Shown piece by piece: positions 22,209 to 53,939 of a stretch of 54,908 bases of DNA. A model generated the notes under the pieces. That model saw only the letters and a program-made list of their open reading frames with translations, ran no database searches and was not told the origin of the DNA. The position numbers were made by a program, and so were the translations under genes. The stretch spans positions 1 through 54,908 of IMG/VR virus record IMGVR_UViG_3300015245_000530; one strand, given 5' to 3'. The first letter of the stretch is position 1, and each line of letters begins with the position of its first letter. The DNA comes from a virus (Duplodnaviria > Caudoviricetes).

Positions 22209-22919
22209 TCAGAATTTGTAGTTCAACTCCGCACGCACGACGTCAACTCTATCTTTCTGCGTGAATACGAGGCCCGGCATCGCTGGGGCGGCAGCATTGA
22301 AGCTTCCGAAGTCGTATTGCAGATATTTAACGCCGAGAATCCAATTTTGGGCAAGCGGAAATTTGACGCCGCCGCCCCATACGAAACCATCCATCGTCGG
22401 AGACGCGCTGGCGTTGAGGGCGGCTCTGCCAGTCAAGTCTTGCACCGTGAAGGAGCCGCCTCCCCATCCCCAACCGACCGTTCCGTAAAGCAGAGCGTGA
22501 CCGACCGGAATGATGCCGAACTCGCCGCGAATCGAGGCGAGCCATGAGTTCTTGCTGTTCGTCGTGATGAGACCAGGCATCGTTGCGCTGCCGGTAATAT
22601 TCGCGCCATCAACATCGCCTTCCAGACCGGCGTAGATGACATTCGCGAAACGGTACCCATAGCCCGCCTGAAAGCCACCGACGAACCCCTGCGGCGCAGC
22701 GGAGAGATTCGCGATCGGTACAGCTTGGAACGCGGCGGACGCATTCCCGAGGTCCCAACCATAGCCGACGTTGACGCCGACATAGGGGCCAGAGAACGGA
22801 TCATAATTCACGTATTGGATTGGTTGCGGCAAAGCCTTCGTGTGCAAGTCGGCCGCATGAGCGGTGCCTGCCACGGATACGGCGGCCAGGGCCGCCAGCA
22901 TAGAAACGCGAATAGACAT
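22209..22919 (-). CDS. Omp25/Omp31/RopB-family outer-membrane beta-barrel protein
   Basis: Signal peptide ending AHA-ADL, FSGPYVGVNVGYGW, GGFQAGY, GLEGD, C-terminal VRAELNYKF BAM signal. Confidence 0.9.
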   Translation of the reverse strand: MSIRVSMLAALAAVSVAGTAHAADLHTKALPQPIQYVNYDPFSGPYVGVNVGYGWDLGNASAAFQAVPIANLSAAPQGFVGGFQAGYGYRFANVIYAGLEGDVDGANITGSATMPGLITTNSKNSWLASIRGEFGIIPVGHALLYGTVGWGWGGGSFTVQDLTGRAALNASASPTMDGFVWGGGVKFPLAQNWILGVKYLQYDFGSFNAAAPAMPGLVFTQKDRVDVVRAELNYKF

Positions 22920-25160: not shown

Positions 25161-26414
25161 TCAAATGCCGCCATCAACTGACAATGATATCTGAAGATCA
25201 TCGCCGACAGCGGCTCCAGCATTGCCGGTGGCCGTTATGAATATATCCTCCGTCGTTGCAGAAATCGAAGTTGAGCTACAATCATTAGTGCCAATTGATC
25301 TCACCTGACCATTGCTGGCTAACGGATTGTAGCCAGTTGCTGTCGGTGTCGCCCTCATCGTGACGGGATTCCTTGTGGACATAAATACCGGGTTTGCTCC
25401 TAGCTTTCCTACAATCGCATGCAATATCGCTGCTGGATTTGTGGCCTGCGCAGGGGCCGTCCCGTATGGGAACGTCTTCCAGAAATGCCGCTTACACCCG
25501 AGAAGCGCCCGCTCGAAGGGGACGCGCTCGAAGGAGCTGACGAAGCCCGAGTCCTCGCATTGGACATCGTCGATCTGGATTGAATCGTCAGCACCAGCCG
25601 TTCCTACAGGCGTCCAAGTAAATTGCACCTCACCCTGCGTAGCATTCGTAGGAAGCGTTGCAGAGGCGATCGCAGATATCGTACCCTGCGTGCTGACCGA
25701 AAGGCTGGCCGAGCCGGAGACGACGTTCGTCTCGCTGGTGAAACCGCCGCCTCGCTTGGCCACGGCGCCCGTACCGACGTAGAGCGTGCAGGTGATTGTC
25801 CCGCTGGCGGGCGACCAGTTCGCGCCCGACTTGACCACCGCGCTCAATGCGACCTTCTTGCTGCGAAGACGGAAGACCTCATCCGTATCGAGCGGAAATC
25901 CGAACGTGTACGCACCAGTACCAGTCTGGCCGTTGTTCCTGCTGACCTTGGCGGCGAGCTGTGACGTGTTCGTCAGGCCGGTGGCCGCCGCGACGACCGA
26001 CGCCTGGTTAGTGCCCGTCGCAATGTACCAACGATCGGCAGTGTACTGCGTCGTGGAGGCTGGGACCGCGAAGCTCGAACTCGACCCGGCACCCCGCTGC
26101 CATACCTCCATCCCGCCGTTGTCTCCGAGCACGTTGCGGTTTGGCCCGGGAATTAAGATCAGGTGCGCGACCGTGTCGAGCATGGCCCACGGGACGAAAC
26201 TGGTTCCGTCGTGGATGCTGAGCACGTTCAGCGCGGCCGCGGTGTTCAGCCACTCCTGACCGGCGACGAGCGCCGACGACGCGCCGGGGCCGAGCGTCGG
26301 CGCCGACGAACCGGAGAATTTGGAGATGACGGCGGCGAGGCCAGAACTGATGTCGCCGCACAGCGACGCCCCACTGAGCGGAGAACCCGGGATGATGACT
26401 GCGCCCTGGGACAT
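25161..26414 (-). CDS. Tail fibre/receptor-binding protein, paralogue A
   Basis: MSQG N-terminal domain; N...NGGMEVWQRG...ADRW carbohydrate-binding-like domain; CKRHFWK. Confidence 0.75.
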   Translation of the reverse strand: MSQGAVIIPGSPLSGASLCGDISSGLAAVISKFSGSSAPTLGPGASSALVAGQEWLNTAAALNVLSIHDGTSFVPWAMLDTVAHLILIPGPNRNVLGDNGGMEVWQRGAGSSSSFAVPASTTQYTADRWYIATGTNQASVVAAATGLTNTSQLAAKVSRNNGQTGTGAYTFGFPLDTDEVFRLRSKKVALSAVVKSGANWSPASGTITCTLYVGTGAVAKRGGGFTSETNVVSGSASLSVSTQGTISAIASATLPTNATQGEVQFTWTPVGTAGADDSIQIDDVQCEDSGFVSSFERVPFERALLGCKRHFWKTFPYGTAPAQATNPAAILHAIVGKLGANPVFMSTRNPVTMRATPTATGYNPLASNGQVRSIGTNDCSSTSISATTEDIFITATGNAGAAVGDDLQISLSVDGGI

Positions 26415-26416
26415 CG

Positions 26417-27676
26417 TTAAATCCCCGCGTCAGCTTGAGCGTGGATATAGATCAAGTGATTCGCGGCCGCGGCTGCAGCTGCGATGATAAGCACGTGTTC
26501 AGGCGATGGATTGTTAGTATCGACTGTGACAGCCAAATCCGCCGCCGCCGTTTGATCTCTCCAATTGGCGTTCGCCTGCGTTGGATTGTATGTCGTGATC
26601 GTGGGCGTCACTCTCATGGGGATGCTGTCACCCCATAGATATCCTGTTTGCGCCGCCGCAGCGGATACAACACCCAAAGAGCCTGCCAGAGCTCCATTTT
26701 GAACTGGTGCCGTTCCGTAGGGGAATGTTTTACGATAATGACGTTTGAGCTTCGGCAGCAGGAAATCGAACGGCAGGCGCTCGAACAGGCTGGCGAACAC
26801 GCCGGTCTCCAGCTGCACGTCATCAATCTGGATGCTATCATCAGCGCCGGCGGTGCCGACCGGCGTCCAAGTGAACTGAAGCTCCCCTTGCGTAGCTGTG
26901 GTCGGTACCGTCGCCGCGCTCGTGGCGGTTATGATACCCTGCGTGCTCACGGCAAGGTTCACCGAACCGGTCAGCACCGTGGTCTCCGAGGTGAAACCGC
27001 CGCCGCGTTTACCGACCGCACCTGTGCCGACATAGAAGTTGACGGTCAGTGTGCCAGACGCGGGCGACCAGTTTGCTCCGGCCTTGGCCACAACCTGGAG
27101 CGAGACCTTTTGGCCGCGCAGGCGCAGCAGTTCGTCAGTGTCGAGCGGGTAGCCGAAGATGTAGGCCGTCGTGCCGGTCTGGCCGTTGTTGCGAAGCATC
27201 TTCGCGGCGATGTTGGAGTTGCTTCCCAGGCCGTTCACCAATCCCGTGACGGCCGAGATGACAGACGCTTCGTTGGCTCCTGTCGTCACGTACCAGCGAT
27301 CCGCCGTGTATGCCGTGCTCGACGCACCGACTGCAAACGATGAGGATGAGCCGGCGCCCCGCTGCCACACCTCGAAGCCGCCATTGTCGATGACGTTGCG
27401 CAGCGCCTGCGGCGTCCACGCGAGGTGGTTGACCGTGTCCATCGACATGAACGGCAGGAACTGCGCGCCGTCATATAACTTGTGCACCTCGATCGTATTC
27501 ACGGTATCGAACCAGCTCTGGAACGCGACCAGCGCACCCGATGCGCCGGGCCCGATCGTCGGAGCGGAGTTGCCCGAGTACTTCGAGGTGATCGCGGCAA
27601 ACGACGAATTGATATCGGCCGCTGCCGCAGCGCCGGTGAGCGGCGAGCCGGGTAGGAGGATGGCGCCCTGCGACAT
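26417..27676 (-). CDS. Tail fibre/receptor-binding protein, paralogue B
   Basis: Full-length paralogue of 25161-26414 (shared QFTWTPVGTAGADDSIQIDDVQ). Confidence 0.75.
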   Translation of the reverse strand: MSQGAILLPGSPLTGAAAAADINSSFAAITSKYSGNSAPTIGPGASGALVAFQSWFDTVNTIEVHKLYDGAQFLPFMSMDTVNHLAWTPQALRNVIDNGGFEVWQRGAGSSSSFAVGASSTAYTADRWYVTTGANEASVISAVTGLVNGLGSNSNIAAKMLRNNGQTGTTAYIFGYPLDTDELLRLRGQKVSLQVVAKAGANWSPASGTLTVNFYVGTGAVGKRGGGFTSETTVLTGSVNLAVSTQGIITATSAATVPTTATQGELQFTWTPVGTAGADDSIQIDDVQLETGVFASLFERLPFDFLLPKLKRHYRKTFPYGTAPVQNGALAGSLGVVSAAAAQTGYLWGDSIPMRVTPTITTYNPTQANANWRDQTAAADLAVTVDTNNPSPEHVLIIAAAAAAANHLIYIHAQADAGI

Positions 27677-27688
27677 GCGATGTTTCTC

Positions 27689-28870
27689 CTAGAGGCAAAT
27701 ATAAATAGTCCCAACGGCGGTGTACTGGATGTTGGTGTGGGCGTTTCCGCTACCACTATTATTGATACTGATTCCAGTGGTTGAACTGCCCGTATTGCCG
27801 GATGCAGCGGCTTGTCCGGGACCACCACCAGCCGTCTGGGTCGCTCCAGCAATAACTGATGTGTGAAGATGTCCTGGATCTATGACGATATGGTTATGGG
27901 TAGCCAATTGCGCCGTAGTTATGCTGACGACTTGCGACCCACCCGTCGCCATCGCCGTGATCCCGTCCGGGGTCAGTGTCAGCGAGGTGAGGCGAGACGC
28001 AGCCGAGTTGCCCATATCATCAAGACCGGCAAGAACTGCGCCGCGCAGATCAGGCGTCCCAATCGTCTTGTTGGCCGCGAAGTCGGCCGCGGCGCTTGCT
28101 CCCCGGCCGCCGGAGACCGGGCATATCGTGTCTGGCAACCCGTTGTAGAGATACGTGAAGAGGTTGATCGCGGTGGCGCTGGCGAGTTCCGTGGCGCCAG
28201 AAGACGCCGACCCTATCGTGCGGCCGCTCGCCCTCACTGCGCCGCTGATGGCATTGTTCTTGGTCGGCATCCAGAAGCACGCGCCGGTCGGCAGCGTGAA
28301 TCCGGGCGTCGCCAGCGCCCTGGTGAAGCCAAATACGTACCAGATGCCGATACCCTGGTATACGAGCGTCCACTGGTCGCCGGGCTGCGTGGTGATGTCC
28401 TGGAGGCCTGGGGTGACGATGGTGCCCGCGCCGTAGGTGAGCTTGAGGTTGCCCGACGCCTGGCACTTCTTCTCCTCGCCGACCTGCGCGGCAGTGCCGA
28501 AGTTCGTCACCGTCGCCGAACCGCTGATGATGATGAACGTCTGCGGCGCGGCGCCGACGTCGACGGTCGCGGCGCTCGCGAGCATGGCGATCCCGCCGCC
28601 CATCTTCGGCAACCAGTTGGAGTTGACCACGTCGAGGTTCGCGGAGCGGTTCCAGTTGACGCCGTCGAACCACTTGAGCGCGGGGAAGTTGACGTTCGTG
28701 GTGTCGAACCACGTCTGGAACTCTTGCGCCGCCGTGCCGGGTCCGTTGGTCGGCGCCGACGCGCCGGAGTTCTGGGAAGCTATGGCGTTCCAGGCCTGGT
28801 TCATCAGGCCGGCGAACGTCACCATGGAAAACGATCCGCCGGTGGGGACGTTGTAGGAACCCTGCGACAT
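27689..28870 (-). CDS. Tail fibre protein with tail-collar-like domain
   Basis: MSQG N-terminal domain; PDLRG..LAGLDDMG, GG.Q.V.....QLATHNH, AHTNIQ collar motifs. Confidence 0.8.
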   Translation of the reverse strand: MSQGSYNVPTGGSFSMVTFAGLMNQAWNAIASQNSGASAPTNGPGTAAQEFQTWFDTTNVNFPALKWFDGVNWNRSANLDVVNSNWLPKMGGGIAMLASAATVDVGAAPQTFIIISGSATVTNFGTAAQVGEEKKCQASGNLKLTYGAGTIVTPGLQDITTQPGDQWTLVYQGIGIWYVFGFTRALATPGFTLPTGACFWMPTKNNAISGAVRASGRTIGSASSGATELASATAINLFTYLYNGLPDTICPVSGGRGASAAADFAANKTIGTPDLRGAVLAGLDDMGNSAASRLTSLTLTPDGITAMATGGSQVVSITTAQLATHNHIVIDPGHLHTSVIAGATQTAGGGPGQAAASGNTGSSTTGISINNSGSGNAHTNIQYTAVGTIYICL

Positions 28871-28974
28871 CAGCCGCGCCTTCTAAAATCAGCGTAGAAA
28901 ACCAGGTTGCCGGCGACGCGGTTCGCTCCCCACTCGATCGGGATCGGCGTTCCTTTTGGCAGTTGTTGTGACAT
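28870..28974 (-). CDS. 34-aa mini-protein copying the tail-tip N-terminal motif (not in the ORF track)
   Basis: MSQQLPKGTPIPIEWGANRVAGNLVFYADFRRRG versus tail tip QGTPIPVGWGTGRLAGNLIYYADFR; TGATG-coupled at both ends. Confidence 0.7.
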   Translation of the reverse strand: MSQQLPKGTPIPIEWGANRVAGNLVFYADFRRRG

Positions 28975-31900
28975 CAGTACCCCGCGAATTCGATGTTGAT
29001 TGTTCTGATGACCCCGACGGAAGCATTCGTAACCCTAACGAATGCCGATGACAATGTGAGGCTTGTGACCGCGAGGACATCGCCGGCCGCCTCATCGACT
29101 ATGACAGCCTGGTAAACTGGCAGACCGGGTGTAGCGGGCACACCTCCAGAACCACCATTGAATGCCGCCAGCGTCGCCGAGCCGTCTGGCTTGAATGTGA
29201 TGGTGGTCCCGGCCGCTGCGAGCGTCAGGCCAATATAGTGGTCGATGCGGGACGGGATGTGCACCGCGAAGGTGAACGAGGAAGCCGAATCGATGGTGTT
29301 CAGGTCGAACGACTCCAGGAACAGCTGCATGTTGAACGCCATGGCGCTGTAGAACCCGGCGCGGTACCGTTGCCATCCGAGGAAGACCACGCCGTCCGCC
29401 GACAGGTTGATGTTGGGGAACGTTGTGATGAACATGTTCGCCGACGCGGCGAAGATGTCATTGAAAGAGAACACATCGGTCCAGGTGAAGATGTTCTGCC
29501 CGACCGGGACACCCTGCGTCGTCCACGAACAATCGACGAGACACCCGACGATCCGGCCGACGTTGACAATGTGGGAAGCCGGGATTGTGTAGGTACCGCT
29601 CACGGTAAACACCGTCGCGAAATTATATACGTCGACGATGCCGTAAACGTCTGTCATATCATAGACGTCTCCGCTGCCGCCATTGCCAAAGTTGTACCAA
29701 TCCGTAAGCGCGTAAATGTCCGCGACACCATACAAATCGCCGGTTTCAAAAGTTTCGATAGTGCCGCTGTTGTTGTAGACGTCGCCGGCGAACGTGCCGG
29801 TGAGCACCCCGGTCGCCCCGAAGAACTCATCCCAAGATTTCACGATGTTGAGAGGGATCACCGCCGTGTTGCTGATGACGCCGATCTGCGCGGCGTTCAT
29901 CGAGTAGACGTCCAATCCTGGCACCGGCACGGCGTGCGCCTTGATGAGGTACACCGTGCCCCCGAGGCTCGAGCCGATCGCGGGCACGTTCGGGTGCAGG
30001 TAGCGCCCGATCACCTGCGCGGTGTTCCAATCAGATCCGCGCCTGATCTCGTAGTCGATGGGGTTGCGGAAGTCGTCGACCTCGTCCCACGAGAACAGGG
30101 TGATGTTGGACTGGTAGTTGGTCGTGAAGTTCTGCACGTCCGGCAGCGGCGACGTGAGCGCGGTGCCCTGGATCGTGTAGGTGTAGGCCGACACGCTCGC
30201 CAACGTCTGCGGGCCCGCCCCGGCGTGGTTGAAGTTCACCAGCTTGACGTAGAGGGTCTGGCCGATGCGGTCCGCGGTGAAAGGCACCCGGAAGACGCCC
30301 TTGTTTATGCGCACGAACGTGGTTCCGGCCGGGCTCGACTTGGGCGCGGTGCCGTAGCCGCCACGGTTGAGGTTCGTCAGGTTGTAGGCGTTCGCCCCGG
30401 TCGGGGTCGCGTTCTGGTAGGCCAGGAACTCGCCGCCCACGTAGCAGAGCGTCGCGAAACCGAGCAGATCAGCGGTGGTGCCGCTGAGGAGTTGGGCCTG
30501 GCTGAGCGCCAGGTCGACCGCGAGCACGCTGGCGGGGTCGATCGTGGGGGGCAGCGTGGACGCCGGCACGGCCGCTAGCGCGCCGGTGAGCACACCCATG
30601 CTCGTCGGGCCGAGCTGCTGGCCGACGAAGTCGTAGTTGACCCCGTCGTAACTCACGTAGACGTTCGCGCCGCCCCACGCCGCGGGGTTGACGCCGGTGA
30701 TCCCGGCCCAGACCTCCAACCCCTTCGACCCCGGTCCGGTGAGCGGGTCGGACGGTTCGAAGAAGAACGGGGTGTTGGTAACGCCGGGATCTGCGTTGTA
30801 GTCGGGCACGAACCCGGTGTTGACCTGGACGCCGTAGAGCGGCGGCGAGGCGGAGCCGACGAGCATGTCCTCCGCGATCATGGAGAAGGACGCGTCGTCC
30901 GGATTCTCGGTGATCTCCTTTATGCGGACCAGCTTGCGCGAGAGCCTCATGGCTGGGTCCGTGACCGTCACCAGGTCCATGGGCTCGAGCAGCACGTATT
31001 TGTGGACGAGCGTGAACTCGAACGTCGCCTTGACCTGCTCGCGGCCGAGCTGCAGGTGCGAGCACGTGGTGGCCGACGAGTCCAGCGCGAAGACGTCGAC
31101 CTGCTTCGGGTCGCGCGATCGCAGCCCGATGTCCTGGATGGACGCGTCGTCCTTCGCCTCCGCCACCGTCGGGTTGTAGGCATTGGCGCGGCCCGGGTAC
31201 TTGACGGTGACTTTGTTGTACGTGTCGGCGGTCTGCTTGAGCCTCACGACCACGGGCGATTCGTAGCTGTTCCCCGACGGCAGGAAGTCGTCGTCGGCGA
31301 GGTCGAACAGCGGCGACAGGTTCGGGACGTAGGTGTAGCCGTTGCCCGATATCGTCGAGTCGTAGTACGGCACGACCTTGAGCTTGCCGCCCGACCACAC
31401 AGCCTCCGCCACGAGGCCGTACAGGATGTCGGACAGGAACGCGCTGTAGGCCTTCTGCTGCGTCAGCACCGGCGACATCCATATCCCGGCGGCCTGCCCG
31501 TAGGCGTAGAGCGGCGTGAGCACCACCCCGTACCAGTCGGTGAGCGCGTAGATGTCCGGGACGCCGTACAGGTCGCCGTCGCCGAACCTGTCGAGCGGGA
31601 ACCCTATCCCGTACTTGTCGTTGGTCGCCGAGTCGACGATGATGTCCTTGGCGTTGGCGTCCTGCGGTGCGCCGGGCGCGAAGAAGCCGAACTTCACCTC
31701 GATGTTGAGCGCCGGCAGGTCGGGCGACGCCCCGAGGTTGAACGGCGCGGCCGCTATGTACGCAATGCCGCGGTTGGCCCGCGCGTCCCCGGGGTGCGCG
31801 CTGACCACGTATCCCCAGGCGGTCTGCGCGTAGCTGCCGGTGAACAAGGAGAAATTGAGGGCGCCGAGCGAGGTGATGTTCTTGCTGTTCCAAACCGTGC

Positions 31901-32201
31901 CGACGCCGACGATGGGCCCCTCGCACAGCCCCATCATCACCGTGGTGTAGTAGACCGTCTGCTCCTGGCCGCCGCCCTGCTTGCCGGAGCCGCCGCCGCC
32001 GGTGCCCTTGCCGCCGCCCTGCTGCGCCTGCTGGACCTGGATGGAGCGAAAGTCGGCGTAGTAGATCAGGTTGCCGGCGAGCCGACCCGTGCCCCACCCC
32101 ACCGGGATCGGCGTGCCCTGCACCGAGGTCTGGACGCGCAGCGAGGTCGCCGGCGGGTTCGGCGTGCTGGCTCGCGGCGACCCGCCGAACAAACTCGTCA
32201 T
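28974..32201 (-). CDS. Tail tip/central fibre (host-specificity J / GTA megatron-like) protein
   Basis: GTPIPVGWG, GLCEGPI, LEPMDLVTV, FN3-like segment; position after DUF2163 and NlpC. Confidence 0.85.
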   Translation of the reverse strand: MTSLFGGSPRASTPNPPATSLRVQTSVQGTPIPVGWGTGRLAGNLIYYADFRSIQVQQAQQGGGKGTGGGGSGKQGGGQEQTVYYTTVMMGLCEGPIVGVGTVWNSKNITSLGALNFSLFTGSYAQTAWGYVVSAHPGDARANRGIAYIAAAPFNLGASPDLPALNIEVKFGFFAPGAPQDANAKDIIVDSATNDKYGIGFPLDRFGDGDLYGVPDIYALTDWYGVVLTPLYAYGQAAGIWMSPVLTQQKAYSAFLSDILYGLVAEAVWSGGKLKVVPYYDSTISGNGYTYVPNLSPLFDLADDDFLPSGNSYESPVVVRLKQTADTYNKVTVKYPGRANAYNPTVAEAKDDASIQDIGLRSRDPKQVDVFALDSSATTCSHLQLGREQVKATFEFTLVHKYVLLEPMDLVTVTDPAMRLSRKLVRIKEITENPDDASFSMIAEDMLVGSASPPLYGVQVNTGFVPDYNADPGVTNTPFFFEPSDPLTGPGSKGLEVWAGITGVNPAAWGGANVYVSYDGVNYDFVGQQLGPTSMGVLTGALAAVPASTLPPTIDPASVLAVDLALSQAQLLSGTTADLLGFATLCYVGGEFLAYQNATPTGANAYNLTNLNRGGYGTAPKSSPAGTTFVRINKGVFRVPFTADRIGQTLYVKLVNFNHAGAGPQTLASVSAYTYTIQGTALTSPLPDVQNFTTNYQSNITLFSWDEVDDFRNPIDYEIRRGSDWNTAQVIGRYLHPNVPAIGSSLGGTVYLIKAHAVPVPGLDVYSMNAAQIGVISNTAVIPLNIVKSWDEFFGATGVLTGTFAGDVYNNSGTIETFETGDLYGVADIYALTDWYNFGNGGSGDVYDMTDVYGIVDVYNFATVFTVSGTYTIPASHIVNVGRIVGCLVDCSWTTQGVPVGQNIFTWTDVFSFNDIFAASANMFITTFPNINLSADGVVFLGWQRYRAGFYSAMAFNMQLFLESFDLNTIDSASSFTFAVHIPSRIDHYIGLTLAAAGTTITFKPDGSATLAAFNGGSGGVPATPGLPVYQAVIVDEAAGDVLAVTSLTLSSAFVRVTNASVGVIRTINIEFAGY

Positions 32202-32207
32202 GCGGCG

Positions 32208-32726
32208 TCACCCCCAGAGCGTGAAGAACTTCACCGCCCTCGCGGTCGTGGCGAGCAGCGCCTGGTCGCCGCGCTCCTCGAAGACGAGGCCCGCCCCGGC
32301 GTTGGCGTGGATGATCCAGGGCCAACCCTCGGCGCGGTCGAAGTCCGCCTGGTACTCCGGCCAGCCGTGCGCGTTCACCACGCCGCCGTGCGAGAAATCG
32401 CGGGCCACGTGGAACATGGCGATGTCGCCCGGCCGCACGCGCTCCTCCGGGATCTCCGACGCGTACCTGCGGATGTGCTGGAGATACAGTCCGGAGGCTC
32501 GGTTGAGGTGCGCCATCGAGTTGTAGACCTCGATCGGCACCTCTCCGACGAGGCCGGACTCCTCGTAGACCTTCGCGAAGAACGTGCAGTCGGCCGCCAC
32601 GCGCTTGATGCGCGCGCCGTGGCGGTAGGGCGTGCCGATCCACTCCCGGGCGACCTCGACCACGCGCCGGCGCTGGAACCACTCGTCCCCAAGGCAGGCG
32701 CGCGTGGGCGCGACGAGGCCGCTCAC
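32208..32726 (-). CDS. Tail-associated NlpC/P60 peptidase
   Basis: AREWIGTPYRH, ADC, PGDIAMF, SHGG, IIHA. Confidence 0.88.
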   Translation of the reverse strand: MSGLVAPTRACLGDEWFQRRRVVEVAREWIGTPYRHGARIKRVAADCTFFAKVYEESGLVGEVPIEVYNSMAHLNRASGLYLQHIRRYASEIPEERVRPGDIAMFHVARDFSHGGVVNAHGWPEYQADFDRAEGWPWIIHANAGAGLVFEERGDQALLATTARAVKFFTLWG

Positions 32727-32778
32727 GCGGATACCGGCAGCGTCGCGAGGACGTCCAACAGGTGAATTGTCGACATGC

Positions 32779-33708
32779 TCATATCGCCGTCTCCGCCGCG
32801 GGGATGAGGTCGAATCCGCCGAAGTTGACCTCGTTGTTGAACTTGGAGATGCAGGTCGAGCGGAGTTTATCGCAGCCGGGGTAGGCCGTGAAGCCATCAC
32901 CGGGCGCCACCGCGAACGGGAACGGCGCGATCAGGAACATGTTGACGGCGTCGAAGCTCTTCACCATGCGCCGGAAGCCGGCGTTGAGCCCCGAGGTCAT
33001 CGTGAGTTGGCCGAGCGAGTAGTAGCCTGCGACGTGGCCGAACCCGGTGGTGACGATCTGGGATTGCGTCGAGCCGGCAAGCGCGGTTCCAACGGAGGAA
33101 AAACTGGCCTGAGAGAGTTGGCATCCAGCATCAAACAACGTCCATCGACACGGCGACTGCCAGGTGTTGCGCGGGATCAGCAGCGAGAACTGGTCGAGCC
33201 ACGAGTTGATCGAGAGCACCGCCTGGTTGCGCATGATGTCGACGGCCGCCATGCGGCCCGCGAAGTAGTCCACCAGCACGAAGGCGCCGCTGGCGTCGGA
33301 GAAGACGAGGAGCGGCGAGGTCCACGGCTGCGGCCAGGATGGCCAGTAGGCGCGGTGGACGCGCCCCGCCGAGCCGGACAGTGATCCGCCGGCGACGGAC
33401 GCCAGCCACGGAGTATTGCCTATGCTGACGGGGTAGGCGGCGCCGGTCACCGGGTCCACCCCCACGGGCATCGCGTGCACCTGCCAGGTATCGACGTCGA
33501 GGCCCGTCTTCCAGTGCCCCACGGCCTTGTTGTCGGCCTGGTCGAAGTAGAGCGCCGATGAGTAGGTGTTGCCGGCGTACACGACGTCGACGTCGGCCGT
33601 GGTGTAGCGCAGCACCTGGCCGGTAGTGAGGGTGAGCTCGTAGAGGTCGCAGAACACGAAAACGCCGGTGGCGAGCAGCGCGATGAGTCCTGCGGGTGCC
33701 GTCTTCAT
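32779..33708 (-). CDS. DUF2163/BR0599-family tail hub protein (GTA gp13-like)
   Basis: LRYTTAD.D, C.WTLFDAGC, PGCDKLRSTC..KFNN..NFGGF..IP. Confidence 0.9.
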   Translation of the reverse strand: MKTAPAGLIALLATGVFVFCDLYELTLTTGQVLRYTTADVDVVYAGNTYSSALYFDQADNKAVGHWKTGLDVDTWQVHAMPVGVDPVTGAAYPVSIGNTPWLASVAGGSLSGSAGRVHRAYWPSWPQPWTSPLLVFSDASGAFVLVDYFAGRMAAVDIMRNQAVLSINSWLDQFSLLIPRNTWQSPCRWTLFDAGCQLSQASFSSVGTALAGSTQSQIVTTGFGHVAGYYSLGQLTMTSGLNAGFRRMVKSFDAVNMFLIAPFPFAVAPGDGFTAYPGCDKLRSTCISKFNNEVNFGGFDLIPAAETAI

Positions 33709-33821: not shown

Positions 33822-35108
33822 TCAGAGCGAGCGCAGAAAGTTCACGAGTTCCTGCTTGGCTGCCGGCGGCAGCAGCGAGAAGGCGCGCACCACCACGTTC
33901 GCCTCGCTGCCGGGGCTGGCGTGTGCAGTTATCGCCGCCAGCAGGTCGGACGTCCTGCCGTCGTGCAGGAAGAACAGGCGCTGCCCGACGCCCCACAGCG
34001 GCGCCGTGCGGAACTCGCTGCCTGTGGCGAGGCCCTGCGGGATGCCGTCCGCGAGCCCCTGCCCCATGTCGTGTAGGGCGAAGTCGCTGAAAGGCCGGTA
34101 TTCCACCTTGCTCTTGCCGATCAGGCTCATCTTCCCGGTGACCTGGCGCTCGATGTGGCAGCCGTCGCAGCCCACAGTCTTGAAGACGATGAGGCCAGCC
34201 GCGGCGGGCAGGTGGACGGGGATCGCCGACGCGGCCACGACCTGCGGAGTTTTGGTGGCCGGGGTCGGGGGCGCGAGCATGCGCATGAAGGCTGCGAATT
34301 TCGTCACGTCGCTGGCCGCGTCCGCCGGCGTCGACTTGACCGAGGTCAGGTTGGTGTGGTCCTCGGGCAGCGCGTTGAATTGGCAACCAGGGGTCTCGTC
34401 GCGCTCCTGGGGGAACACCTCGTTGGTGACGCCCTGCTCGACATTATAGGCCTCGCCCGCAAAGATCATCAGCGACTTGTTCTGCGCCTTCCACCCGAAC
34501 CTGGTGATGGTGCCGTCGTTGCCGCTCCGGTTGAACCGACCGGTGATGCCCGGAAACTTGGCCTGCGCCCTCGCGGCTGCTTCGAAGTTGGCGTCCGGCG
34601 TCGCCTCCACCAAGCCGAGCCCGAAGACCGGCGTGGGGATGCGGAATGAGATGTTGCGAGCGGCGATCGCCGCCGCGAAGTCTGGCTGCGCGATGTTGCA
34701 CCCCTGGGCGTCGGCGCGGCCGGTGATGACGAACAAGTCGTGGACGCCGCCGTCCGACACGAACCGCGCTTCCCTCACGGGGCCGTTGGGCGTGATGAAG
34801 GATGGAACCTTGTTCTTGGCGCCGTCCAAGGTTGCCACGGCCACCTGCGGGTTCACCCGCGGGCTCGTCCCTCCCGTCGCCGGCTGCGCGTGGCACCCGG
34901 CGCAGGAGTCGAGGTTGAACCTCGGCCCTAGCCCGTTCACCACTCCGTCGACTTCCTCGAACGCGTCCTTGGACGCGTCGAAGAAACCGGCGTCGACGCC
35001 AGCGAGCGCGCCGCCGGCCCCGGCAGGTCCACCTCGCGGGCCCGGATCGGTTTGGCCGAACACCGGAGTGGCGGCGAGCAGGGCAGCAATCAAGACAGGT
35101 CTGAACAT
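33822..35108 (-). CDS. Secreted di-heme oxidoreductase (DHOR/DUF1111-like, cytochrome c peroxidase-related)
   Basis: Signal peptide; GLGPRFN..SCAGCH; GRF...RFGWKA; GCDGCH; FSDFALHDMG; FRTAPLWGVG..LHDGR. Confidence 0.9.
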   Translation of the reverse strand: MFRPVLIAALLAATPVFGQTDPGPRGGPAGAGGALAGVDAGFFDASKDAFEEVDGVVNGLGPRFNLDSCAGCHAQPATGGTSPRVNPQVAVATLDGAKNKVPSFITPNGPVREARFVSDGGVHDLFVITGRADAQGCNIAQPDFAAAIAARNISFRIPTPVFGLGLVEATPDANFEAAARAQAKFPGITGRFNRSGNDGTITRFGWKAQNKSLMIFAGEAYNVEQGVTNEVFPQERDETPGCQFNALPEDHTNLTSVKSTPADAASDVTKFAAFMRMLAPPTPATKTPQVVAASAIPVHLPAAAGLIVFKTVGCDGCHIERQVTGKMSLIGKSKVEYRPFSDFALHDMGQGLADGIPQGLATGSEFRTAPLWGVGQRLFFLHDGRTSDLLAAITAHASPGSEANVVVRAFSLLPPAAKQELVNFLRSL

Positions 35109-35191
35109 GGTTTTGAATCCCCTTCTTCGTTGACTACGCCGCGACCTCAATCCCCACATCGTGGGTATTTTGCGGCCCAGCCGGGGCGCCG

Positions 35192-35464
35192 TCAGATGAT
35201 CCTGTCCCTGTTGCGGTGCATCAACACGCGGGCCGCCCTGTTGACGCCCCCCATTTTCCTGGCTTCGCCGTTGAGCCACGTCGCCGAGTAGTCGAGCGCG
35301 TTGGCCACCGCGCGAAGGCACGGCGGCAGCCGGTCGAAGCCCCTCATCTCCTTGCGGAAGGACCCCTCGACGGCCGCTATGGGCACCACGGCGCCGTCGA
35401 ACAACATGCTCCCATCCGGCAGCGGCTCAAGCCGTTGCGGGCGACGGCGACGCTGGCGCCTCAT
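35192..35464 (-). CDS. Hypothetical basic protein
   Basis: ATGA-coupled to DUF2460; MRGFDRLPPCLR motif. Confidence 0.55.
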   Translation of the reverse strand: MRRQRRRRPQRLEPLPDGSMLFDGAVVPIAAVEGSFRKEMRGFDRLPPCLRAVANALDYSATWLNGEARKMGGVNRAARVLMHRNRDRII

Positions 35465-36093
35465 TTGCTCTGGGTCTTGATGGTGGTGAACTTGATGGCC
35501 TTGGCCTGCCATATCAGGTTCACGAACTTCTCGAAGTCCACCGCGTCGTCGTCGAACCGGCAAAGCCAGTTGAACGTCCCGGTCCAGGTGAGCGCGGCCG
35601 CGGCCGCCGGCGGCGAATTGAACGTCACGAGCCCCTGAGTTCCGAGCGTGTAGAGCACCGTCGGCGTGCCGGCGACCTTGACGCTCGCGATCGCGACCGG
35701 CGCGAACACCGGCTCGGAGAACGTGACGCCGCCGAACCCAGTCATGGTGCGCACCAGCGGGAACGCCGTCGTGGCGCCATCGCCCAGCCCGAAGAGCTGG
35801 TCGGTCACCGCCCCGTCGTCCGGGTCGGCGAACTGGAACACGAGCGCGGCCCCCCGCACCAGGTTGAACAGGACCGCGAGCCCCTGCATCTCCAGGGCGG
35901 CGAGCGACTGCAGGGCGGCCGAGCTGGAGTTGAGCGCCTCATACGGGAGGGAGATGCGCCAGCGCGGAAAGCTCCACAGCGGGATCGGGTTGTCCTGCCC
36001 GGAAGTCGCCTCCTGGTGGAGCGTCTTCCAAGTCGGGGTCTTGACCACCGGGTAGGTCGCGCCGATGAGCGGGGGGAACGTTGGCACCGTCAT
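35461..36093 (-). CDS. DUF2460 distal tail protein (GTA gp12-like)
   Basis: KTPTWKT...SG, FQFADPDD, GDGATTAFPL, LTWTGTFNWLCRFDDD. Confidence 0.88.
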   Translation of the reverse strand: MTVPTFPPLIGATYPVVKTPTWKTLHQEATSGQDNPIPLWSFPRWRISLPYEALNSSSAALQSLAALEMQGLAVLFNLVRGAALVFQFADPDDGAVTDQLFGLGDGATTAFPLVRTMTGFGGVTFSEPVFAPVAIASVKVAGTPTVLYTLGTQGLVTFNSPPAAAAALTWTGTFNWLCRFDDDAVDFEKFVNLIWQAKAIKFTTIKTQSK

Positions 36094-48028: not shown

Positions 48029-50418
48029 TCCTCGTCTCCCGCCTCGTCTGCCGGCTCGTCCTCGACCACTGGCGCCACGGCGCACTCGCAGTTCGGGTGC
48101 GCGGTCGGCTCAGAGTCGCCGGACGGGAAGTCGTCGTCAACATCGATGGCCCCGGCGTCGGCGTTCTCCTGGCATATCTCGCAGGGGTTGGGCCCGAGTA
48201 TCCACTCCTTCTTCACGTTCACGCCGGCCTCGTCGCGGGCGATCCTGTAACCCTCGACGGCGGCCGCGGAGTTGGCGTCGCGTATCTCGGTGAAGGCGAT
48301 GAGCTCCGCCCGGTCGTCCGAGAACGCGCCTATGTCCGCGATCTCGTCGGCGATGGCCTCGTTCCCGATGTTCTCGTCGAGGCCGTCGGCGATGGCCTCG
48401 CGGATGGCGTCTCGGGTGGTGTCCTCGATCTGGTAGCGCGCGTCCGGGTTGTCCACCAGCTCGCCGTCGACGTACCGCTTGCCCACAAGCTCGGCCGCGT
48501 AATCGCGCGCTATGTCGGCCGCGCGCTCGTTCACGACGTCCATGAGGTCGGATTCGGCGTCCACCCCGAGCGACAGGACGGCCTGCTCGGCGTAATCCTG
48601 CGCCGCGGCGGCCAGCGCGTCGGCCACATCGTCGATCGCGGCCTCTATGTCGGACAGGTCGGCGTCGGCGGCGATCGCCGCGGCGATCTCCTCGTTGGTC
48701 CTGGAGTCGTCGGCCTTGGCTACTTTGGCCAGGCCCCGCTTCACCGCGGCCTTGGTTTTCTTGGCCGCCTTGCCGAACGCGCGCCTGAGGAGCTTGGCCG
48801 CCTTGGCCCGGGCCCGCAGGATCTTCGGCCGGTCAAAAGGGATGGGTTCGAGCCGCCTCCCGGCGGCCGACTTCTTCTTGACCGGTTTGCCCTTCGACTC
48901 GTCCGGATTCGCTGCGCCGCCGTTCGGCTTGGCGTTCCCGGCCGGCGGCTTGCCGCCGAAGGCGGGCTCGGGCGGGCCAAGCAGGTCGAGCGCCTTCTTC
49001 TTCTCCTCAAGGGTGTTGGCGCCGATCGGCAGGTAGCCGGTGGCCGTCTTCACCATCAGCTGGTCGGCCGCGGGGTCTTCGGACGGCTCCTCGCCGAGCT
49101 CCTCGCGCGCCTCGTTCAGCGTGATGAGCCCGTCCTCGACGCGCTTGGCAAGGATGTTGGTCTGCTTCTCCTGGTCGACCTCGATCTCCTCGTCGAAGGC
49201 GAACTCCAGGTCGCGCGAGCCGAACTCTACCTCTATGACGTCGGTGAACCACTCGCGGATGTAGTCCTTGTAGGGCTCTATGCCCTCCTCCTTGGCCGTG
49301 TCCTGCGCCGTGCCGGCGGTGGCCCGGTTCATCATCTGGACGAACGGCTGCGGCGACATGGAGTGGGCGAAGCACACGACGCGCGCGAGCCACTCGTCGG
49401 TCTTGCCGGTGAGCTCCGGCTCCTTGGTGGGGATGAAGGTCTTGGCGACGCCGCCGGGCACGAACTTCGCGCGGCGCCTGACGGCGAGGTTGCCGGACAG
49501 CATCGCGTCCCAGTAGGTTTGGAACGCCTGTATCTGGTCGGGCGTCCAGCTGTCCGGCGCGCCGATCAGCGACTCGGGGACGTTTCCCTCCGTGTAGTAG
49601 CTCAGCATGAACTGCTGGCGCCGCAGCGCGATGTTCACGGTGGTGATGATCTGCTCGACGGGCGAGTAGCCGTACACCTTGTGGGCGCGCTTGTTGTAGG
49701 GCCGGTAGATCAGGTCCTCGACGCTGTAGTTGACCGCCGGGTAGCCCTTCAACGCCTGCTGGTATGCGGGAGGGACCACGCGGCCGCCGTCGGCGGCGAC
49801 GTAGGGCACGGGGGTGCGGCCCCAATCGTCGACGAGGACCTTGACGGTGGCGCCGTCGATCTGCTTGAGCGCGATGAGCTGGCCGCCGCGGTTGCGTTGG
49901 CAATAGATGGCCGGCGCGTCGATCACGCACAGGTCTTCCAGGTACGACCGCAGCCAAGCGCGGTACCTGGTGATCCCGTCGGGCCGGCTAAAGAACGGGG
50001 TGAGCGCGTCGATGCGCGCCTGGTCGGCGTCCTTGATCTTCGACTTCTTGTCGGTGCCCTTTACGCGGATGCTCCAGTTCAGCTTGCAGAGCTGGTCCTT
50101 GCGCGTCTCGATGACGAGGCGGAGCAGGTCGTAGACCTCCGCCAGCGAGCGCAGCATCTGGAAACCGACCTGCTCGTAGGCGCGCGGCTGGTTGACGAGG
50201 TTGTAGCCGTGGGGGTAGTCGAACTGCCGCCCCGCGACCTCGGGCGGCGCGATCGGCTCCATGGGGTTGAGGGGGCCGAACCAATCCTCCGGGCCGTTCC
50301 GAATGATGCCCTGCGATCGATCGTAGTTCGACGAGATCGTCACCTGGTAGGGCGACAACGCCGTCATCGAGCGGCCTTCGCCCCGAGGGGTCTGCACTTT
50401 CTCAATGTCATCAGTCAT
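48025..50418 (-). CDS. Portal protein fused to a MuF/gp7-like minor head domain
   Basis: Portal motifs (IETRKDQ, YGYSPVEQ, ITLNEAREELG.EP) then RAELIAFTE, KKEW, CEIC..N, PTAHPNC.C. Confidence 0.88.
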   Translation of the reverse strand: MTDDIEKVQTPRGEGRSMTALSPYQVTISSNYDRSQGIIRNGPEDWFGPLNPMEPIAPPEVAGRQFDYPHGYNLVNQPRAYEQVGFQMLRSLAEVYDLLRLVIETRKDQLCKLNWSIRVKGTDKKSKIKDADQARIDALTPFFSRPDGITRYRAWLRSYLEDLCVIDAPAIYCQRNRGGQLIALKQIDGATVKVLVDDWGRTPVPYVAADGGRVVPPAYQQALKGYPAVNYSVEDLIYRPYNKRAHKVYGYSPVEQIITTVNIALRRQQFMLSYYTEGNVPESLIGAPDSWTPDQIQAFQTYWDAMLSGNLAVRRRAKFVPGGVAKTFIPTKEPELTGKTDEWLARVVCFAHSMSPQPFVQMMNRATAGTAQDTAKEEGIEPYKDYIREWFTDVIEVEFGSRDLEFAFDEEIEVDQEKQTNILAKRVEDGLITLNEAREELGEEPSEDPAADQLMVKTATGYLPIGANTLEEKKKALDLLGPPEPAFGGKPPAGNAKPNGGAANPDESKGKPVKKKSAAGRRLEPIPFDRPKILRARAKAAKLLRRAFGKAAKKTKAAVKRGLAKVAKADDSRTNEEIAAAIAADADLSDIEAAIDDVADALAAAAQDYAEQAVLSLGVDAESDLMDVVNERAADIARDYAAELVGKRYVDGELVDNPDARYQIEDTTRDAIREAIADGLDENIGNEAIADEIADIGAFSDDRAELIAFTEIRDANSAAAVEGYRIARDEAGVNVKKEWILGPNPCEICQENADAGAIDVDDDFPSGDSEPTAHPNCECAVAPVVEDEPADEAGDEE

Positions 50419-50537
50419 ATGCGGGTGCAACATGGAAGCCGATCATCCACATTAGACTACACTGAAACGACCACCAAGTCACGGTGGCGCCGCGAACTGC
50501 GTCAGATCGGCGGGGCCTGAGAATTTCTGAGTGATGG

Positions 50538-52082
50538 TCATGGCGGAAGCATTTCAGGGTTTGAGAGCAAATTTGCTGGCCCGGAAAATTTCTGCGTCAA
50601 GCTCATTGCCTGATACGCGCCAATCGTACTCGGTGGCCTAGAATTAGAATTACAAATATTGGTGATAGGAATGTTTATGAGATCAGTCACGACATTCACA
50701 TTTGCACCAGCGTCCTGCACATCACTTACCGTAAACGTATTCGCTGAGCTGCAATTATTGACACCACCTACGTCGCCAAGGAAATATTTATAGCCAGGGA
50801 CAAAAAGGCCGACCGAAATCCCGTTTGTATAGTTAATATCTGACTTTGATATTGTAAAGGTGCCAGCTGCAAAAGATAATGACGACAAATCAATATGATG
50901 AAAATTCGTCAAAGCAGTCGGAAACGTCACGCCATCAAGTGATATACTATTGCTTCTCCCACAACATGTTGACCCAGCACGGATGCCATTATTTGGACCG
51001 CCAGGCGAAAAGATAGTGTTGACAATATTTGTATTTAGAACAGTCCCTCCTAAAGCACCACGAAAATTTGAATTCGATATATTTAGTGCAGCAACGGAAG
51101 CGCTTTGAATAGTCAACTGATCTCCAGTGCATCGCGTAATATTTAGTGATTCTATTTCTTTATCGATTTCCGACGCCAGCAATTCGCATCCACTAAAAAA
51201 TATAGACTGCGAAACCGTCGGGTCCGTACCGACACCTGATATAGATACATCTTGGGCTACAATTGTCCTGCCCTGAAACGTTACCTGTCCTGCGCTATAT
51301 ATCGTTCCGCCCCTGATGGTTACATTCGTATTCCATGATGGCTCTAGCAAGTAAATCATCGCTGGTCCGCCTAAATTAATGCTGGATGGGCCGCCAGTAG
51401 ACAATTGAGGATATGTCGATTTATATGAATTGCCTAATATGCTGCTAAGCGTTATTACGCTTCCATTTATCGCCGTTATCAACCTGAATTCAAAAAATTG
51501 AAAATTAGGCGGGAACCCATTCAACTGCAACCCAAGAGCGGTGATCGTAATCCACCGACCGACTGAAAACCTACCAATGTTTCCGTCATTGACGGTTACT
51601 GTTGAATCTCCCGCACTGGCGGTATTTATTAAAGCGTTGTTCGTGTTATTATCGAAAAATCCGAATCCACCAACAAACTGCACATTTTGGATTGTCGCCC
51701 CATACATCCAAATATCTGCGTTTGTAATTCCAGATAAATTATGCGCTGAACAATCACTCGTTATACAGAAATGTGTGCCTGTTGTGTCGAGGATGCAATT
51801 AGAGCCGGGAGGAATATATAATACGGCCTTGGTTGGGTTCGCCGCAATCGACGCGCTGACCCATGATGCCCATGCTGTCGCATCAGAATCGGTTCCATTG
51901 CAAGTCGCTCCATAACCCGTATTACATTTTCCAGCGATCGACGAAGTTATGCACGAGACGTTAGTCGGGCCTCCGTAAAGATTTGGATCGAATGTTGTAT
52001 TATGGCCGCCTCTTCCTCCTGCGAATGAAGATTGAAGCGCACCTAAAACAAACAAGCTAACTAATATAGCGCGCCACATCAA
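50538..52082 (-). CDS. Secreted beta-helix-like protein (AT-rich), possible depolymerase or adhesin
   Basis: Signal peptide ending SFA; YGATCNGTDSDATA and LYIPPG pectin-lyase-like cap motifs; many Cys; Asn/Ser/Thr/Ile-rich. Confidence 0.65.
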   Translation of the reverse strand: MMWRAILVSLFVLGALQSSFAGGRGGHNTTFDPNLYGGPTNVSCITSSIAGKCNTGYGATCNGTDSDATAWASWVSASIAANPTKAVLYIPPGSNCILDTTGTHFCITSDCSAHNLSGITNADIWMYGATIQNVQFVGGFGFFDNNTNNALINTASAGDSTVTVNDGNIGRFSVGRWITITALGLQLNGFPPNFQFFEFRLITAINGSVITLSSILGNSYKSTYPQLSTGGPSSINLGGPAMIYLLEPSWNTNVTIRGGTIYSAGQVTFQGRTIVAQDVSISGVGTDPTVSQSIFFSGCELLASEIDKEIESLNITRCTGDQLTIQSASVAALNISNSNFRGALGGTVLNTNIVNTIFSPGGPNNGIRAGSTCCGRSNSISLDGVTFPTALTNFHHIDLSSLSFAAGTFTISKSDINYTNGISVGLFVPGYKYFLGDVGGVNNCSSANTFTVSDVQDAGANVNVVTDLINIPITNICNSNSRPPSTIGAYQAMSLTQKFSGPANLLSNPEMLPP

Positions 52083-52987
52083 AACCCGCCAAATGTATGG
52101 TAGTTTGCACTCACGTTTGACGATTGCGTGCTGGAAAAATTAGTACCCCACACCCCAGCTCCGCTTATCTGTCCAACATAGTTGCTCCCGTTTCCGTCAT
52201 TTCCTATAAAGATAGCATTCTGCGCCAAAGCCAAAGCGCCACAGTTACCCGTGGTGTTGCTTCCGTCTACGTTTATTGCCGCATTCGGCGAGGTATTCCC
52301 TACCGCCGTAGCAGCATGCCAAGCACCACTTGTCGATGCTTTCAACAAATCAGATCCGCAAAAAGCGGAATTTTCAGGTGTATTATAAAAGTATAGACCT
52401 GCGTTAGTCCCACCTGTTTTCGTGGCAACGAGTGCTCCTCCGGACGCTCCTGTTGCAGTATCTTTGTAGGAAACGCTTACCGTCCATGGTTGAGAGACGG
52501 ACACGCCCCCATTCCATGCCACCTTCGTCAAAAAACTGCCGCTGGCAAACACCATGCACGCGTGTCCGTTCTGACAATTAAACAAAATGGTCGGACGCGT
52601 GGCCTCTGTGGGGTTCGTGGCATCGTTAGAATTTCCTGTCTGATCGTAGGCGGTCTTGATTGTGCACGTAACGACGCTGCAATGAGATGCGCCTATCAAT
52701 CCATCGACAACGGTACCTGATGAATTAAAAACAAGGTCTCCGCAAGATGCATCTGCAACGAGACAGACATTGAACGCCAATCCTCCGCCGCTCGCATAAG
52801 CTGCTGTGTATGCCTGTGCACCCCAAAATGTTAGAGCGCTTCCCACAACATCGCCGGGACCCTGAAAAGCCGCAATTCCGCTCCCCGCTCCACCAACTCC
52901 CGTCAATGTCAATTGCGCGCGCGGCTGCACGAGCGCCACGCCAAGCAGAAGGAGCGCAAAGCCGGTGGCGAAGAGGGAGCGGTTCAT
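52079..52987 (-). CDS. Secreted LamG/arabinofuranosidase-B-like beta-sandwich protein
   Basis: Signal peptide; GPGDVV, YDQTGN.NDA......RP, YVGQI.; several Cys pairs. Confidence 0.6.
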   Translation of the reverse strand: MNRSLFATGFALLLLGVALVQPRAQLTLTGVGGAGSGIAAFQGPGDVVGSALTFWGAQAYTAAYASGGGLAFNVCLVADASCGDLVFNSSGTVVDGLIGASHCSVVTCTIKTAYDQTGNSNDATNPTEATRPTILFNCQNGHACMVFASGSFLTKVAWNGGVSVSQPWTVSVSYKDTATGASGGALVATKTGGTNAGLYFYNTPENSAFCGSDLLKASTSGAWHAATAVGNTSPNAAINVDGSNTTGNCGALALAQNAIFIGNDGNGSNYVGQISGAGVWGTNFSSTQSSNVSANYHTFGGF

Positions 52988-52989
52988 TG

Positions 52990-53934: not shown

Positions 53935-53939
53935 GTTGT

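Follow-up and report, generated by a model that had tools for sequence, protein, structure and literature searches.

A 34-codon reading frame at a duplicated tail-tip/fibre gene junction of an uncultured siphophage: micro-protein or remnant of a captured tail-tip hairpin?

A reading frame of 34 codons fills the space between the tail-tip gene and the first fibre gene of an uncultured siphophage, and its peptide resembles the N-terminal part of the tail tip itself, which raises the question of whether the frame encodes a working micro-protein or is what a rearrangement has left behind. The window analysed here is the whole 54,908-nt stretch of a linear IMG/VR virus record, the completeness of which is estimated by CheckV at 79%. 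A preliminary description of this DNA had offered three readings of the frame, namely a free plug or strand-complementing peptide similar to lambda gpI, an assembly regulator acting by mimicry, and a scar of recombination that swapped the tail-tip module.

The mini-ORF belongs to a siphophage structural module on the minus strand, which also includes a portal with a Mu-F domain, a head-tail connector and a tape measure protein; the baseplate genes (Table 1) form a set of the RcGTA type. The tail tip matches the NCBIfam GTA_megatron profile with an E-value of 5.1e-33, though short of the cut-off of the family, and its N-terminus aligns to profile positions 47-134 (E 1.3e-13). Its AlphaFold2 model (mean pLDDT 81.8) is matched by Foldseek to the baseplate hub or central fibre proteins of JBD30, T5 (pb3), Chi, lambda (gpJ), RcGTA and R4C, the last two being represented by 6tba_8A and 8gtc_M. 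The resident copy of the motif shared with the mini-ORF is modelled with confidence (residues 31-50, pLDDT about 90): strands 38-42 and 44-57 form a hairpin, followed by a disordered glycine-rich loop (59-79) and a further strand (80-94). Alignment with its relatives shows the resident tail tip to be collinear with them and of full length. Each of the three fibre genes starts with MSQG.

Table 1. Features at and around the tail-tip/fibre junction, in positions of the window
Feature	Position	Strand	Description
Mini-ORF (P0001)	28870-28974	-	34 codons and stop; peptide MSQQLPKGTPIPIEWGANRVAGNLVFYADFRRRG
72-nt core of the mini-ORF, codons 8-31	28882-28953	-	homologous to the tail-tip hairpin motif
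Resident motif copy, tail-tip codons 29-52	32046-32117	-	GTPIPVGWGTGRLAGNLIYYADFR; ungapped alignment with the core
Junction copy 1	28967-28976	-	TGATGTCACA; tail-tip stop overlapping mini-ORF start
Junction copy 2	28863-28872	-	TGATGTCGCA; mini-ORF stop overlapping fibre start
AGAAGG	28879-28884	-	in the last mini-ORF codons; SD-like, 8 nt 5' of the fibre ATG; -4.9 kcal/mol with a generic anti-SD
Distal tail protein	35461-36093	-	DUF2460
Hub	32779-33708	-	Gp84_N and BR0599 domains
NlpC/P60-like peptidase	in 32208-32900	-	TIGR02219, E 1.8e-8, short of the family cut-off
Megatron/gpJ-type tail tip (baseplate hub), P0002, 1075 aa	28974-32201	-	PF13550, 7.1e-21; PF23666, 6.8e-16
First fibre gene, P0003	27689-28870	-	first of three tandem paralogous fibre genes; start MSQGSYNVPTGG

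The sequence and coordinates of the frame were confirmed as first reported: it reads 34 codons and fills the gap between tail tip and fibre, one A being common to its ATG and the TGA of the 1075-aa tail-tip ORF, another to its TGA and the start codon of the 393-aa fibre ORF. The start is preceded by an SD-like GGGGT (-6.3 kcal/mol), a value inside the range of the neighbouring genes. The peptide is called as a gene in public data, where it is present on four contigs, and its cluster at 90% identity has one member. One of these contigs, 1313 bp long, carries an identical tail-tip C-terminus, and the flanking proteins are known from two sources; other contigs that contain the peptide or neighbouring proteins represent this strain again, as identical fragments, and so offer no population variation. 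A structured RNA at this place was considered and rejected, for the fold of 28840-29010 has a z-score of +1.0 against shuffled sequences and Rfam yields no match at gathering scores.

The likeness to the tail tip is confined to the core of the frame. Aligned without gaps to tail-tip residues 29-52, the mini-ORF shares with them 17 of 24 residues and 54 of 72 nucleotides, and a repeat search ranked the same pair first among the direct repeats of the region (69 nt at 77%, the core against 32049-32117). With the tail tip as query against the record, the mini-ORF took second place (E 5.7e-8), and a profile built from 116 tail-tip N-terminal 24-mers gave it 40.6 bits versus 42.6 bits for the tail tip itself; the near-invariant positions of the motif (G, P, WG, R, N, L, Y, D and F) are all retained in the peptide. 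Codons 1-7 and the final three have no counterpart in the tail tip. The claim that the mini-ORF copies the N-terminal motif of the tail tip therefore stands as to the gapless match, but the homology is limited to codons 8-31: the mini-ORF is a diverged copy of a short tail-tip strand motif. Among family profiles, the peptide covers positions 40-65 of phrog_1101 (26 of 1405 positions, E 3.2e-4) and positions 64-89 of GTA_megatron (NF048004; 9.5 bits against a cut-off of 800, E 0.18, non-significant alone), while a Pfam-A scan at E up to 10 returned no family. As it stays under the full-protein cut-offs of the GTA megatron and Phage-tail_3 families (NF048004, PF13550, phrog_1101), the peptide is a fragment homologue of megatron-type tail tips and not as a member of these families.

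The boundaries of the extra DNA can be read off by comparison with related phages. Relative to the loci L025, L006 and L004, the window carries one clean extra block, and the junction of L025 and L008 (...GCGGGGTACTGATGTCCCAAGG...) equals the window sequence minus 104 nt. At the two ends of the block stands TGATGTCNCA, which occurs in the window exactly twice, 104 nt apart, with 0.30 occurrences expected by chance; by the spacing of the two TGATG copies the inserted DNA measures 104 nt and not 105. An ancestral junction consisting of the tail-tip stop, the fibre ATG and the first fibre codons is thus duplicated around the insertion. The upstream copy furnishes the mini-ORF with the SD-like GGGGT, the ATG and the residues MSQ, and the downstream copy with the overlapping TGA. 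Because the junction is duplicated, neither the two TGATG overlaps nor the MSQ start need selection to account for them. Both had been brought forward as signs of a gene: the overlaps are indeed present at both ends, and all three fibre genes do begin with MSQG, but coupling loses its force as an argument once the duplicated junction supplies both overlaps, and the same duplication supplies MSQ. What the duplication leaves to chance or to selection is that both the captured fragment and the second TGA share the reading frame of the inherited ATG, for which we would put the odds, by rough estimate, at about 1 in 9. Two further candidates were set aside. The last 12 nt of the insertion, compared by eye, have no similarity to the 3' end of the tail-tip gene, of which they might have been a remnant. 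The pair of template and variable repeat of a diversity-generating retroelement is disfavoured too, since the 18 differences between the copies span several bases and a reverse transcriptase is absent among the scanned ORFs.

Whether the frame is kept by other phages was asked of the closest tail tips first and of wider collections after that. The nearest tail tips were taken from 5.8 billion protein clusters as the best 14 of 300 matches among 7999 scored candidates (P0004-P0017); they are 54-69% identical to the resident over full length. Their DNA was found at eight loci in IMG/VR and seven in JGI metagenomes, with several contigs common to both, and 14 loci comprise the 3' end of the tail-tip gene together with downstream DNA (L003-L006, L008-L010 and L023-L029). 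At most ten of these are distinct: L004/L026, L005/L023 and L006/L024 are identical over 600 nt, and L009/L028 have the same junction on contigs of equal length. A fibre gene starting MSQ[GA][SA]YNVP comes after the tail tip in 14/14 loci. It follows directly via TGATG in L008 and L025 and after a spacer of 4-15 nt in L003, L004/L026, L006/L024, L009/L028 and L010; in L005/L023 an unrelated 418-nt insertion with a 129-aa ORF intervenes, and in L027/L029 an unrelated 488-nt insertion with a 162-aa ORF that bears a NUMOD3 motif (E 2.9e-4). The tail-tip/fibre junction is thus a demonstrated insertion site and, as far as the compared sequences indicate, an insertion hot spot. Neither the mini-ORF nor a second copy of the motif is present in any of the 14 junction-bearing loci, and in a tblastn search of the relatives' loci the tail-tip N-termini were the sole significant matches, the next best having an E-value of 0.18.

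The wider set, 80 of 289 confirmed loci, brought in tail tips 32-43% identical to the resident. When 29,551 stop-to-stop frames of the window and 107 loci were scored with the motif profile, one strong match was obtained in each of 90 loci (86 distinct), every time inside a frame no shorter than 300 aa; a second copy was found in none of these 90 megatron-like tail-tip loci (best second match 9.4 bits, E 1.4), and two strong matches occur only in the window. A phmmer search with the peptide against 1.84 billion representatives returned, at E up to 0.001, the peptide itself, one 950-aa tail tip and a 114-aa protein, P0125, and thus no similar free-standing short protein among these representatives. 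In a protein atlas the peptide drew look-alikes by length alone. Among 50,697 phage records, tblastn matched annotated tail-tip genes alone, in five records. DNA patterns for PIPIEWGANR hit no place in the metagenome and genome collections, and the looser G.PIP.EWG hit 11 places in IMG/VR, three of them in long tail-tip frames and eight unrelated. Pattern scans with the tail tip alone were confirmed for 0 of 42 matches in genome contigs and 0 of 1 in viral contigs, and a search of the literature for such a small ORF brought up nothing relevant. The preliminary description had proposed to look for the frame by tblastn at the same locus of relatives. With the ORF kept in 0/14 junctions and 0/90 tail-tip loci, the outcome goes against a conserved gene: a conserved small gene should be open at the same site in relatives, which is not the case here, in a sample whose nearest tail tip is 69% identical.

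The age and the past of the copy are recorded in its differences from the tail-tip genes. Of the 72 nt, 18 separate the mini-ORF from the resident motif, 19 from that of L025 and 20 from that of L006, and the resident in turn differs from L025 at 18 and from L006 at 20 nt, which makes the three-way relation star-like. The mini-ORF accordingly did not arise by recent duplication and decay of the resident motif; it is as distant from it as from relatives of 60% identity. Individual sites point in several directions. In the first half of the copy, 33 of 38 nt agree with L025, L006 and L005, which places this half nearer the relatives; AGNL and YADFR are common to the mini-ORF and the resident, whereas APNL stands in every one of the 14 closest relatives and almost none of them has the A of YADFR; and the E at position 14 of the peptide recurs in long tail-tip frames of another subfamily (L016, L018 and L019).

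The dN/dS ratio (NG86), which the preliminary description had also proposed to determine, is 0.29 for the mini-ORF versus the resident and 0.23-0.40 for the resident versus its relatives. Reconstruction of the three-way ancestor assigns 10 nt and 4-5 residue changes to the branch of the mini-ORF and 9-10 nt and 4-5 residue changes to that of the resident. In neutral simulations with 10 substitutions, 23% of the copies gain a stop; residue changes as few as those observed have a probability of 0.16 with L025 as outgroup and of 0.04 with L006, and the profile score of the mini-ORF is kept in 2.7-2.8% of the stop-free simulations. A long neutral history of the copy along its whole branch is therefore unlikely, and most of the divergence must have arisen under selection that preserves the motif, either in the functional tail-tip gene of a sister phage or on the mini-ORF itself. 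Since a neutral history is unlikely, reading the frame as a scar calls for a recent capture from an unsampled donor, and with the closest sampled relative only 69% identical, such a donor is quite plausible. Recent capture from a functional gene explains the low dN/dS equally well, which for this reason is no proof of selection on the mini-ORF.

The comparison with known tails bears on what such a peptide could do. The statement that the motif occurs in the N-terminal segments of lambda gpI-like and megatron proteins has held up, strongly for the tail tip, whose N-terminus aligns within GTA_megatron as given above, and weakly for gpI, of which the motif profile picks residues 186-GNVLPVLYGEMRV-198 with 6.1 bits (E 0.0015 in a three-sequence search). 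By its sequence the motif corresponds to a gpI-type hairpin that is here fused to a J-type protein, and its region to the start of the adhesin-like domain of the RcGTA and R4C megatrons, a domain reported to span residues 47-229 in RcGTA and 46-211 in R4C (PMC7296036, PMC10276861). In lambda, the resolved part of gpI, 135-223, is described as a trimeric plug in the tip, held to gpJ through beta-sheet augmentation at three places, and the counterparts of lambda L, K, I and J are given as RcGTA genes 13-15 (PMC10721106). Like the mini-ORF, gpI has the G..lPv.YG..Rv.G motif (186-198) in a protein apart from the central fibre gpJ. In contrast to the mini-ORF, gpI is a conserved lumen plug; its 223 aa include an additional N-terminal region, and residues 137-152 form a hydrophobic segment (PMC10721106). 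The mini-ORF, with 34 aa, amounts to the hairpin only, without the hydrophobic segment, is a singleton and coexists with a fused copy in the tail tip. The order of the genes differs as well, lambda I being placed between the peptidase gene K and J, and the mini-ORF downstream of the J-type gene. As to gpI-like membership, the peptide thus has the strand motif, by weak similarity, and neither the size of about 220 aa with the plug nor the position between K and J. In the RcGTA and R4C megatrons (g15), the hairpin to which the mini-ORF aligns is part of a protein of 1300-1450 aa, whereas in the window an extra copy of it is free-standing.

Two other comparisons concern the arrangement of the DNA. 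Phage gene fragments and morons resemble the mini-ORF in being lineage-specific insertions at gene boundaries, here with a short flanking duplication; unlike the typical ones, the insert is a paralogous fragment of the neighbouring structural gene, it forms an intact coupled ORF, and its motif is well kept. Another parallel is P0125, which is encoded on a metagenome contig of 908 bp, has an identical PIPIEWGANR and is 64% identical by phmmer over mini-ORF residues 7-31. It likewise carries the hairpin directly before a tail gene whose first codons are duplicated (MSEG...MSEG), but differs in that the hairpin runs on in frame into an NlpC/P60-like peptidase (E 9e-6 versus the peptidase of the window). 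A near-length search with its residues 1-40 returned P0125 itself only, making it a singleton as the mini-ORF is; a shorter-length search gave no candidate, the limited reach of this search being evident from its missing the window's own peptide also. P0125 hints that such events recur, or that there is some use for the hairpin.

The reading that competes most seriously with a remnant, though a doubtful one on balance, is that the frame encodes a functional micro-protein: translated between the tail tip and the fibres, it would be a gpI-like beta-hairpin in free form. Beta-sheet augmentation would anchor it in the N-terminal domain of the hub or tail tip, or on the free hub prior to attachment of the tail tip; once there, it would help assembly along, act as a cap or regulate assembly by mimicry. 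The equivalence of the motif to the hairpin that opens the megatron adhesin-like domain, its recurrence in gpI 186-198 and the three beta-sheet augmentations by which gpI is described to hold gpJ (PMC10721106) speak for a docking peptide, and so do the retained invariant positions, the residue changes as few as in a functional gene, the rarity with which neutral simulations keep the score, the E shared at position 14 with the tail-tip frames of L016, L018 and L019, the coupled start with its SD, and the same hairpin standing before the tail peptidase in P0125. Against it stands the singleton status of the peptide, absent from 14 syntenic junctions and 90 tail-tip loci and without a similar short protein in the large libraries; the low dN/dS, as argued above, fits recent capture equally, and the tail tip owns the hairpin in cis. 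A bolder form, to which we would give slightly less credence again, regards the hairpin as a portable address tag of the baseplate: the free, co-translated 34-residue peptide would dock where the gpI-like hairpin of the tail tip docks and would cap or time the assembly of hub and tail tip, and P0125 would carry the same tag on a tail peptidase for loading into the baseplate. It is improbable, if still worth naming, that the open frame and not the peptide is what is kept, as a relay by which ribosomes pass from the tail tip to the fibre gene. Coupling is suggested by the arrangement in relatives, where the fibre start overlaps the tail-tip stop or sits 4-15 nt after it or, in L005/L023 and L027/L029, an unrelated ORF intervenes; the window retains both overlaps by way of the mini-ORF, and promoter-like and terminator-like sites are absent from 27500-30000. 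But the AGAAGG ahead of the fibre gene, which may be its own Shine-Dalgarno-like site, could make a relay unneeded, and the retention of the hairpin residues would be left without explanation.

Two more explanations have very little to recommend them. In a metagenome-derived contig one might fear that a chimeric join had placed a copy of part of the tail-tip gene at the junction, but the exact peptide on four contigs, one of them the 1313-bp contig with the identical tail-tip C-terminus, and the flanking proteins from two sources make an artefact of assembly or sequencing most improbable; nor would 18 differences in 72 nt be expected of a mis-join within the same genome. Recoding, in which a -1 shift near the 3' end of the tail-tip gene adds the hairpin to the C-terminus of the tail tip, or a shift where the mini-ORF ends fuses it to the fibre, is the least credible of all. 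The frame of the mini-ORF is indeed open for 20 codons upstream of its ATG (54 aa from stop to stop), but no X XXY YYZ slippery heptamer precedes either junction, a TAG stands in the fibre frame 15 nt 5' of the fibre ATG, and the RNA of the region has, as noted, neither structure beyond that of shuffled sequences nor a match in Rfam.

With these readings weighed, somewhat better than even confidence goes to the mini-ORF being a lineage-specific remnant of recombination or repair, probably translated only by way of its inherited coupled start. It most likely originated by illegitimate recombination or templated break repair at the hot-spot junction, through which 104 nt came to be inserted between the tail-tip and fibre genes. 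The core of the insertion, 72 nt long, is a piece of the 5' region of a megatron/gpJ-type tail-tip gene, most probably that of a related sister phage and recently captured, and encodes the first beta-hairpin after the N-terminal arm, the counterpart of which in lambda belongs to the separate gpI. The duplicated TGATGTCNCA gives this fragment the old ribosome-binding site of the fibre gene, a coupled ATG and an overlapping TGA, so that the frame is probably translated, into a peptide that presumably lacks a function. As the resident tail tip, according to its model, keeps the hairpin in cis, no docking site would be left vacant for it. Codon usage speaks for a remnant too, being off relative to the neighbours: GC3 is 0.63 in the mini-ORF where the tail tip has 0.89 and the fibres have 0.71-0.79, and the coding sequence ends with AGA AGG. 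The well-kept motif, the in-frame geometry, the plausible SD of the inherited start and P0125 stand against the remnant. Of the third reading in the preliminary description, the scar is the part that fits best, the ORF being absent from relatives, but there is no sign that the tail-tip module was swapped: the full length and collinearity of the tail tip leave such a swap unsupported.

As a remnant, the locus offers a snapshot of how phage tail modules get rearranged: a duplicated, insertion-prone gene boundary can turn a captured gene fragment into a translationally coupled ORF, and new micro-proteins may plausibly arise by such junction duplication together with fragment capture. Should the peptide prove functional, a gpI-like hairpin could act in trans even in megatron-type tails and would provide a very small handle on how hub and tail tip join. 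If the tag reading is true, the peptide would be smaller than any trans-acting tail assembly factor described so far and would stand, as a living intermediate, between the split (lambda I plus J) and the fused (megatron) forms. The practical weight is modest either way, as the locus belongs to one uncultured phage without a host.

The window's insertion between the tail-tip and first fibre genes shares its architecture with P0125, a metagenome protein known here from its protein sequence, in which an NlpC/P60-like tail peptidase is preceded by an in-frame fused tail-tip hairpin. The first four peptidase residues (MSEG) occur twice in this singleton, giving the layout MSEG-KPIPIEWGANRISGDLLWYCDFATGKTSGP-MSEG-MQRV...

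In relatives, the tail-tip/fibre junction carries other insertions. The 162-aa ORF shared by loci L027 and L029 starts there with TGATG and, judging from its NUMOD3 motif, looks like a homing endonuclease. The 129-aa ORF of L005 and L023 is without any family match. On the fibre side, all three paralogous genes of the window begin with ATGTC[GC]CAGGG (MSQG), and relatives have either two or three fibre genes.

A DHOR (di-haem oxidoreductase, Pfam) match covers residues 224-499 of the 499-aa ORF (E 5.8e-34) that separates the gene of the distal tail protein from that of the hub, and tblastn detected no counterpart of this ORF in the related loci L003-L011. The two flanking genes adjoin directly in L007 and are separated by ~240 nt in L004. 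The tail module that holds the mini-ORF thus has this ORF as its second lineage-specific insertion, possibly a moron.

Within the tail-tip gene, a 49-nt direct repeat (82%), whose copies correspond to residues about 209-225 and 819-864, produces the D-x-Y hexapeptide repeats (GDLYGVPDIYALTDWY), both in low-confidence loops of the tail-tip model. Among the 15 closest tail tips, the first D-x-Y block is present in five and absent from nine, with P0017 having a shorter stretch. Such a pattern is a further sign of short-segment copying or loss within the gene.

Coordinates and sizes of the features (positions in the window unless a locus is named)
Feature	Position	Strand	Details
P0125			114 aa; 908-bp JGI contig
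DHOR-like ORF	33822-35321	-	499 aa
Tandem fibre genes (three)	25161-28870	-	393, 419, 417 aa
NUMOD3 ORF	L027:2067-2555		162 aa; Pfam E 2.9e-4; identical sequence in L029
ORF at junction	L005:10444-10833		129 aa; also L023
49-nt repeat copies	29694-29742; 31530-31578		
Outer-membrane beta-barrel gene	22209-22919	-	PF13505, E 1.4e-14

Elsewhere in the record, the outer-membrane beta-barrel protein gene is located downstream of an endolysin-like gene, and G+C is 49-52% in the final 5 kb (50001-54908) versus 60-68% in the rest.
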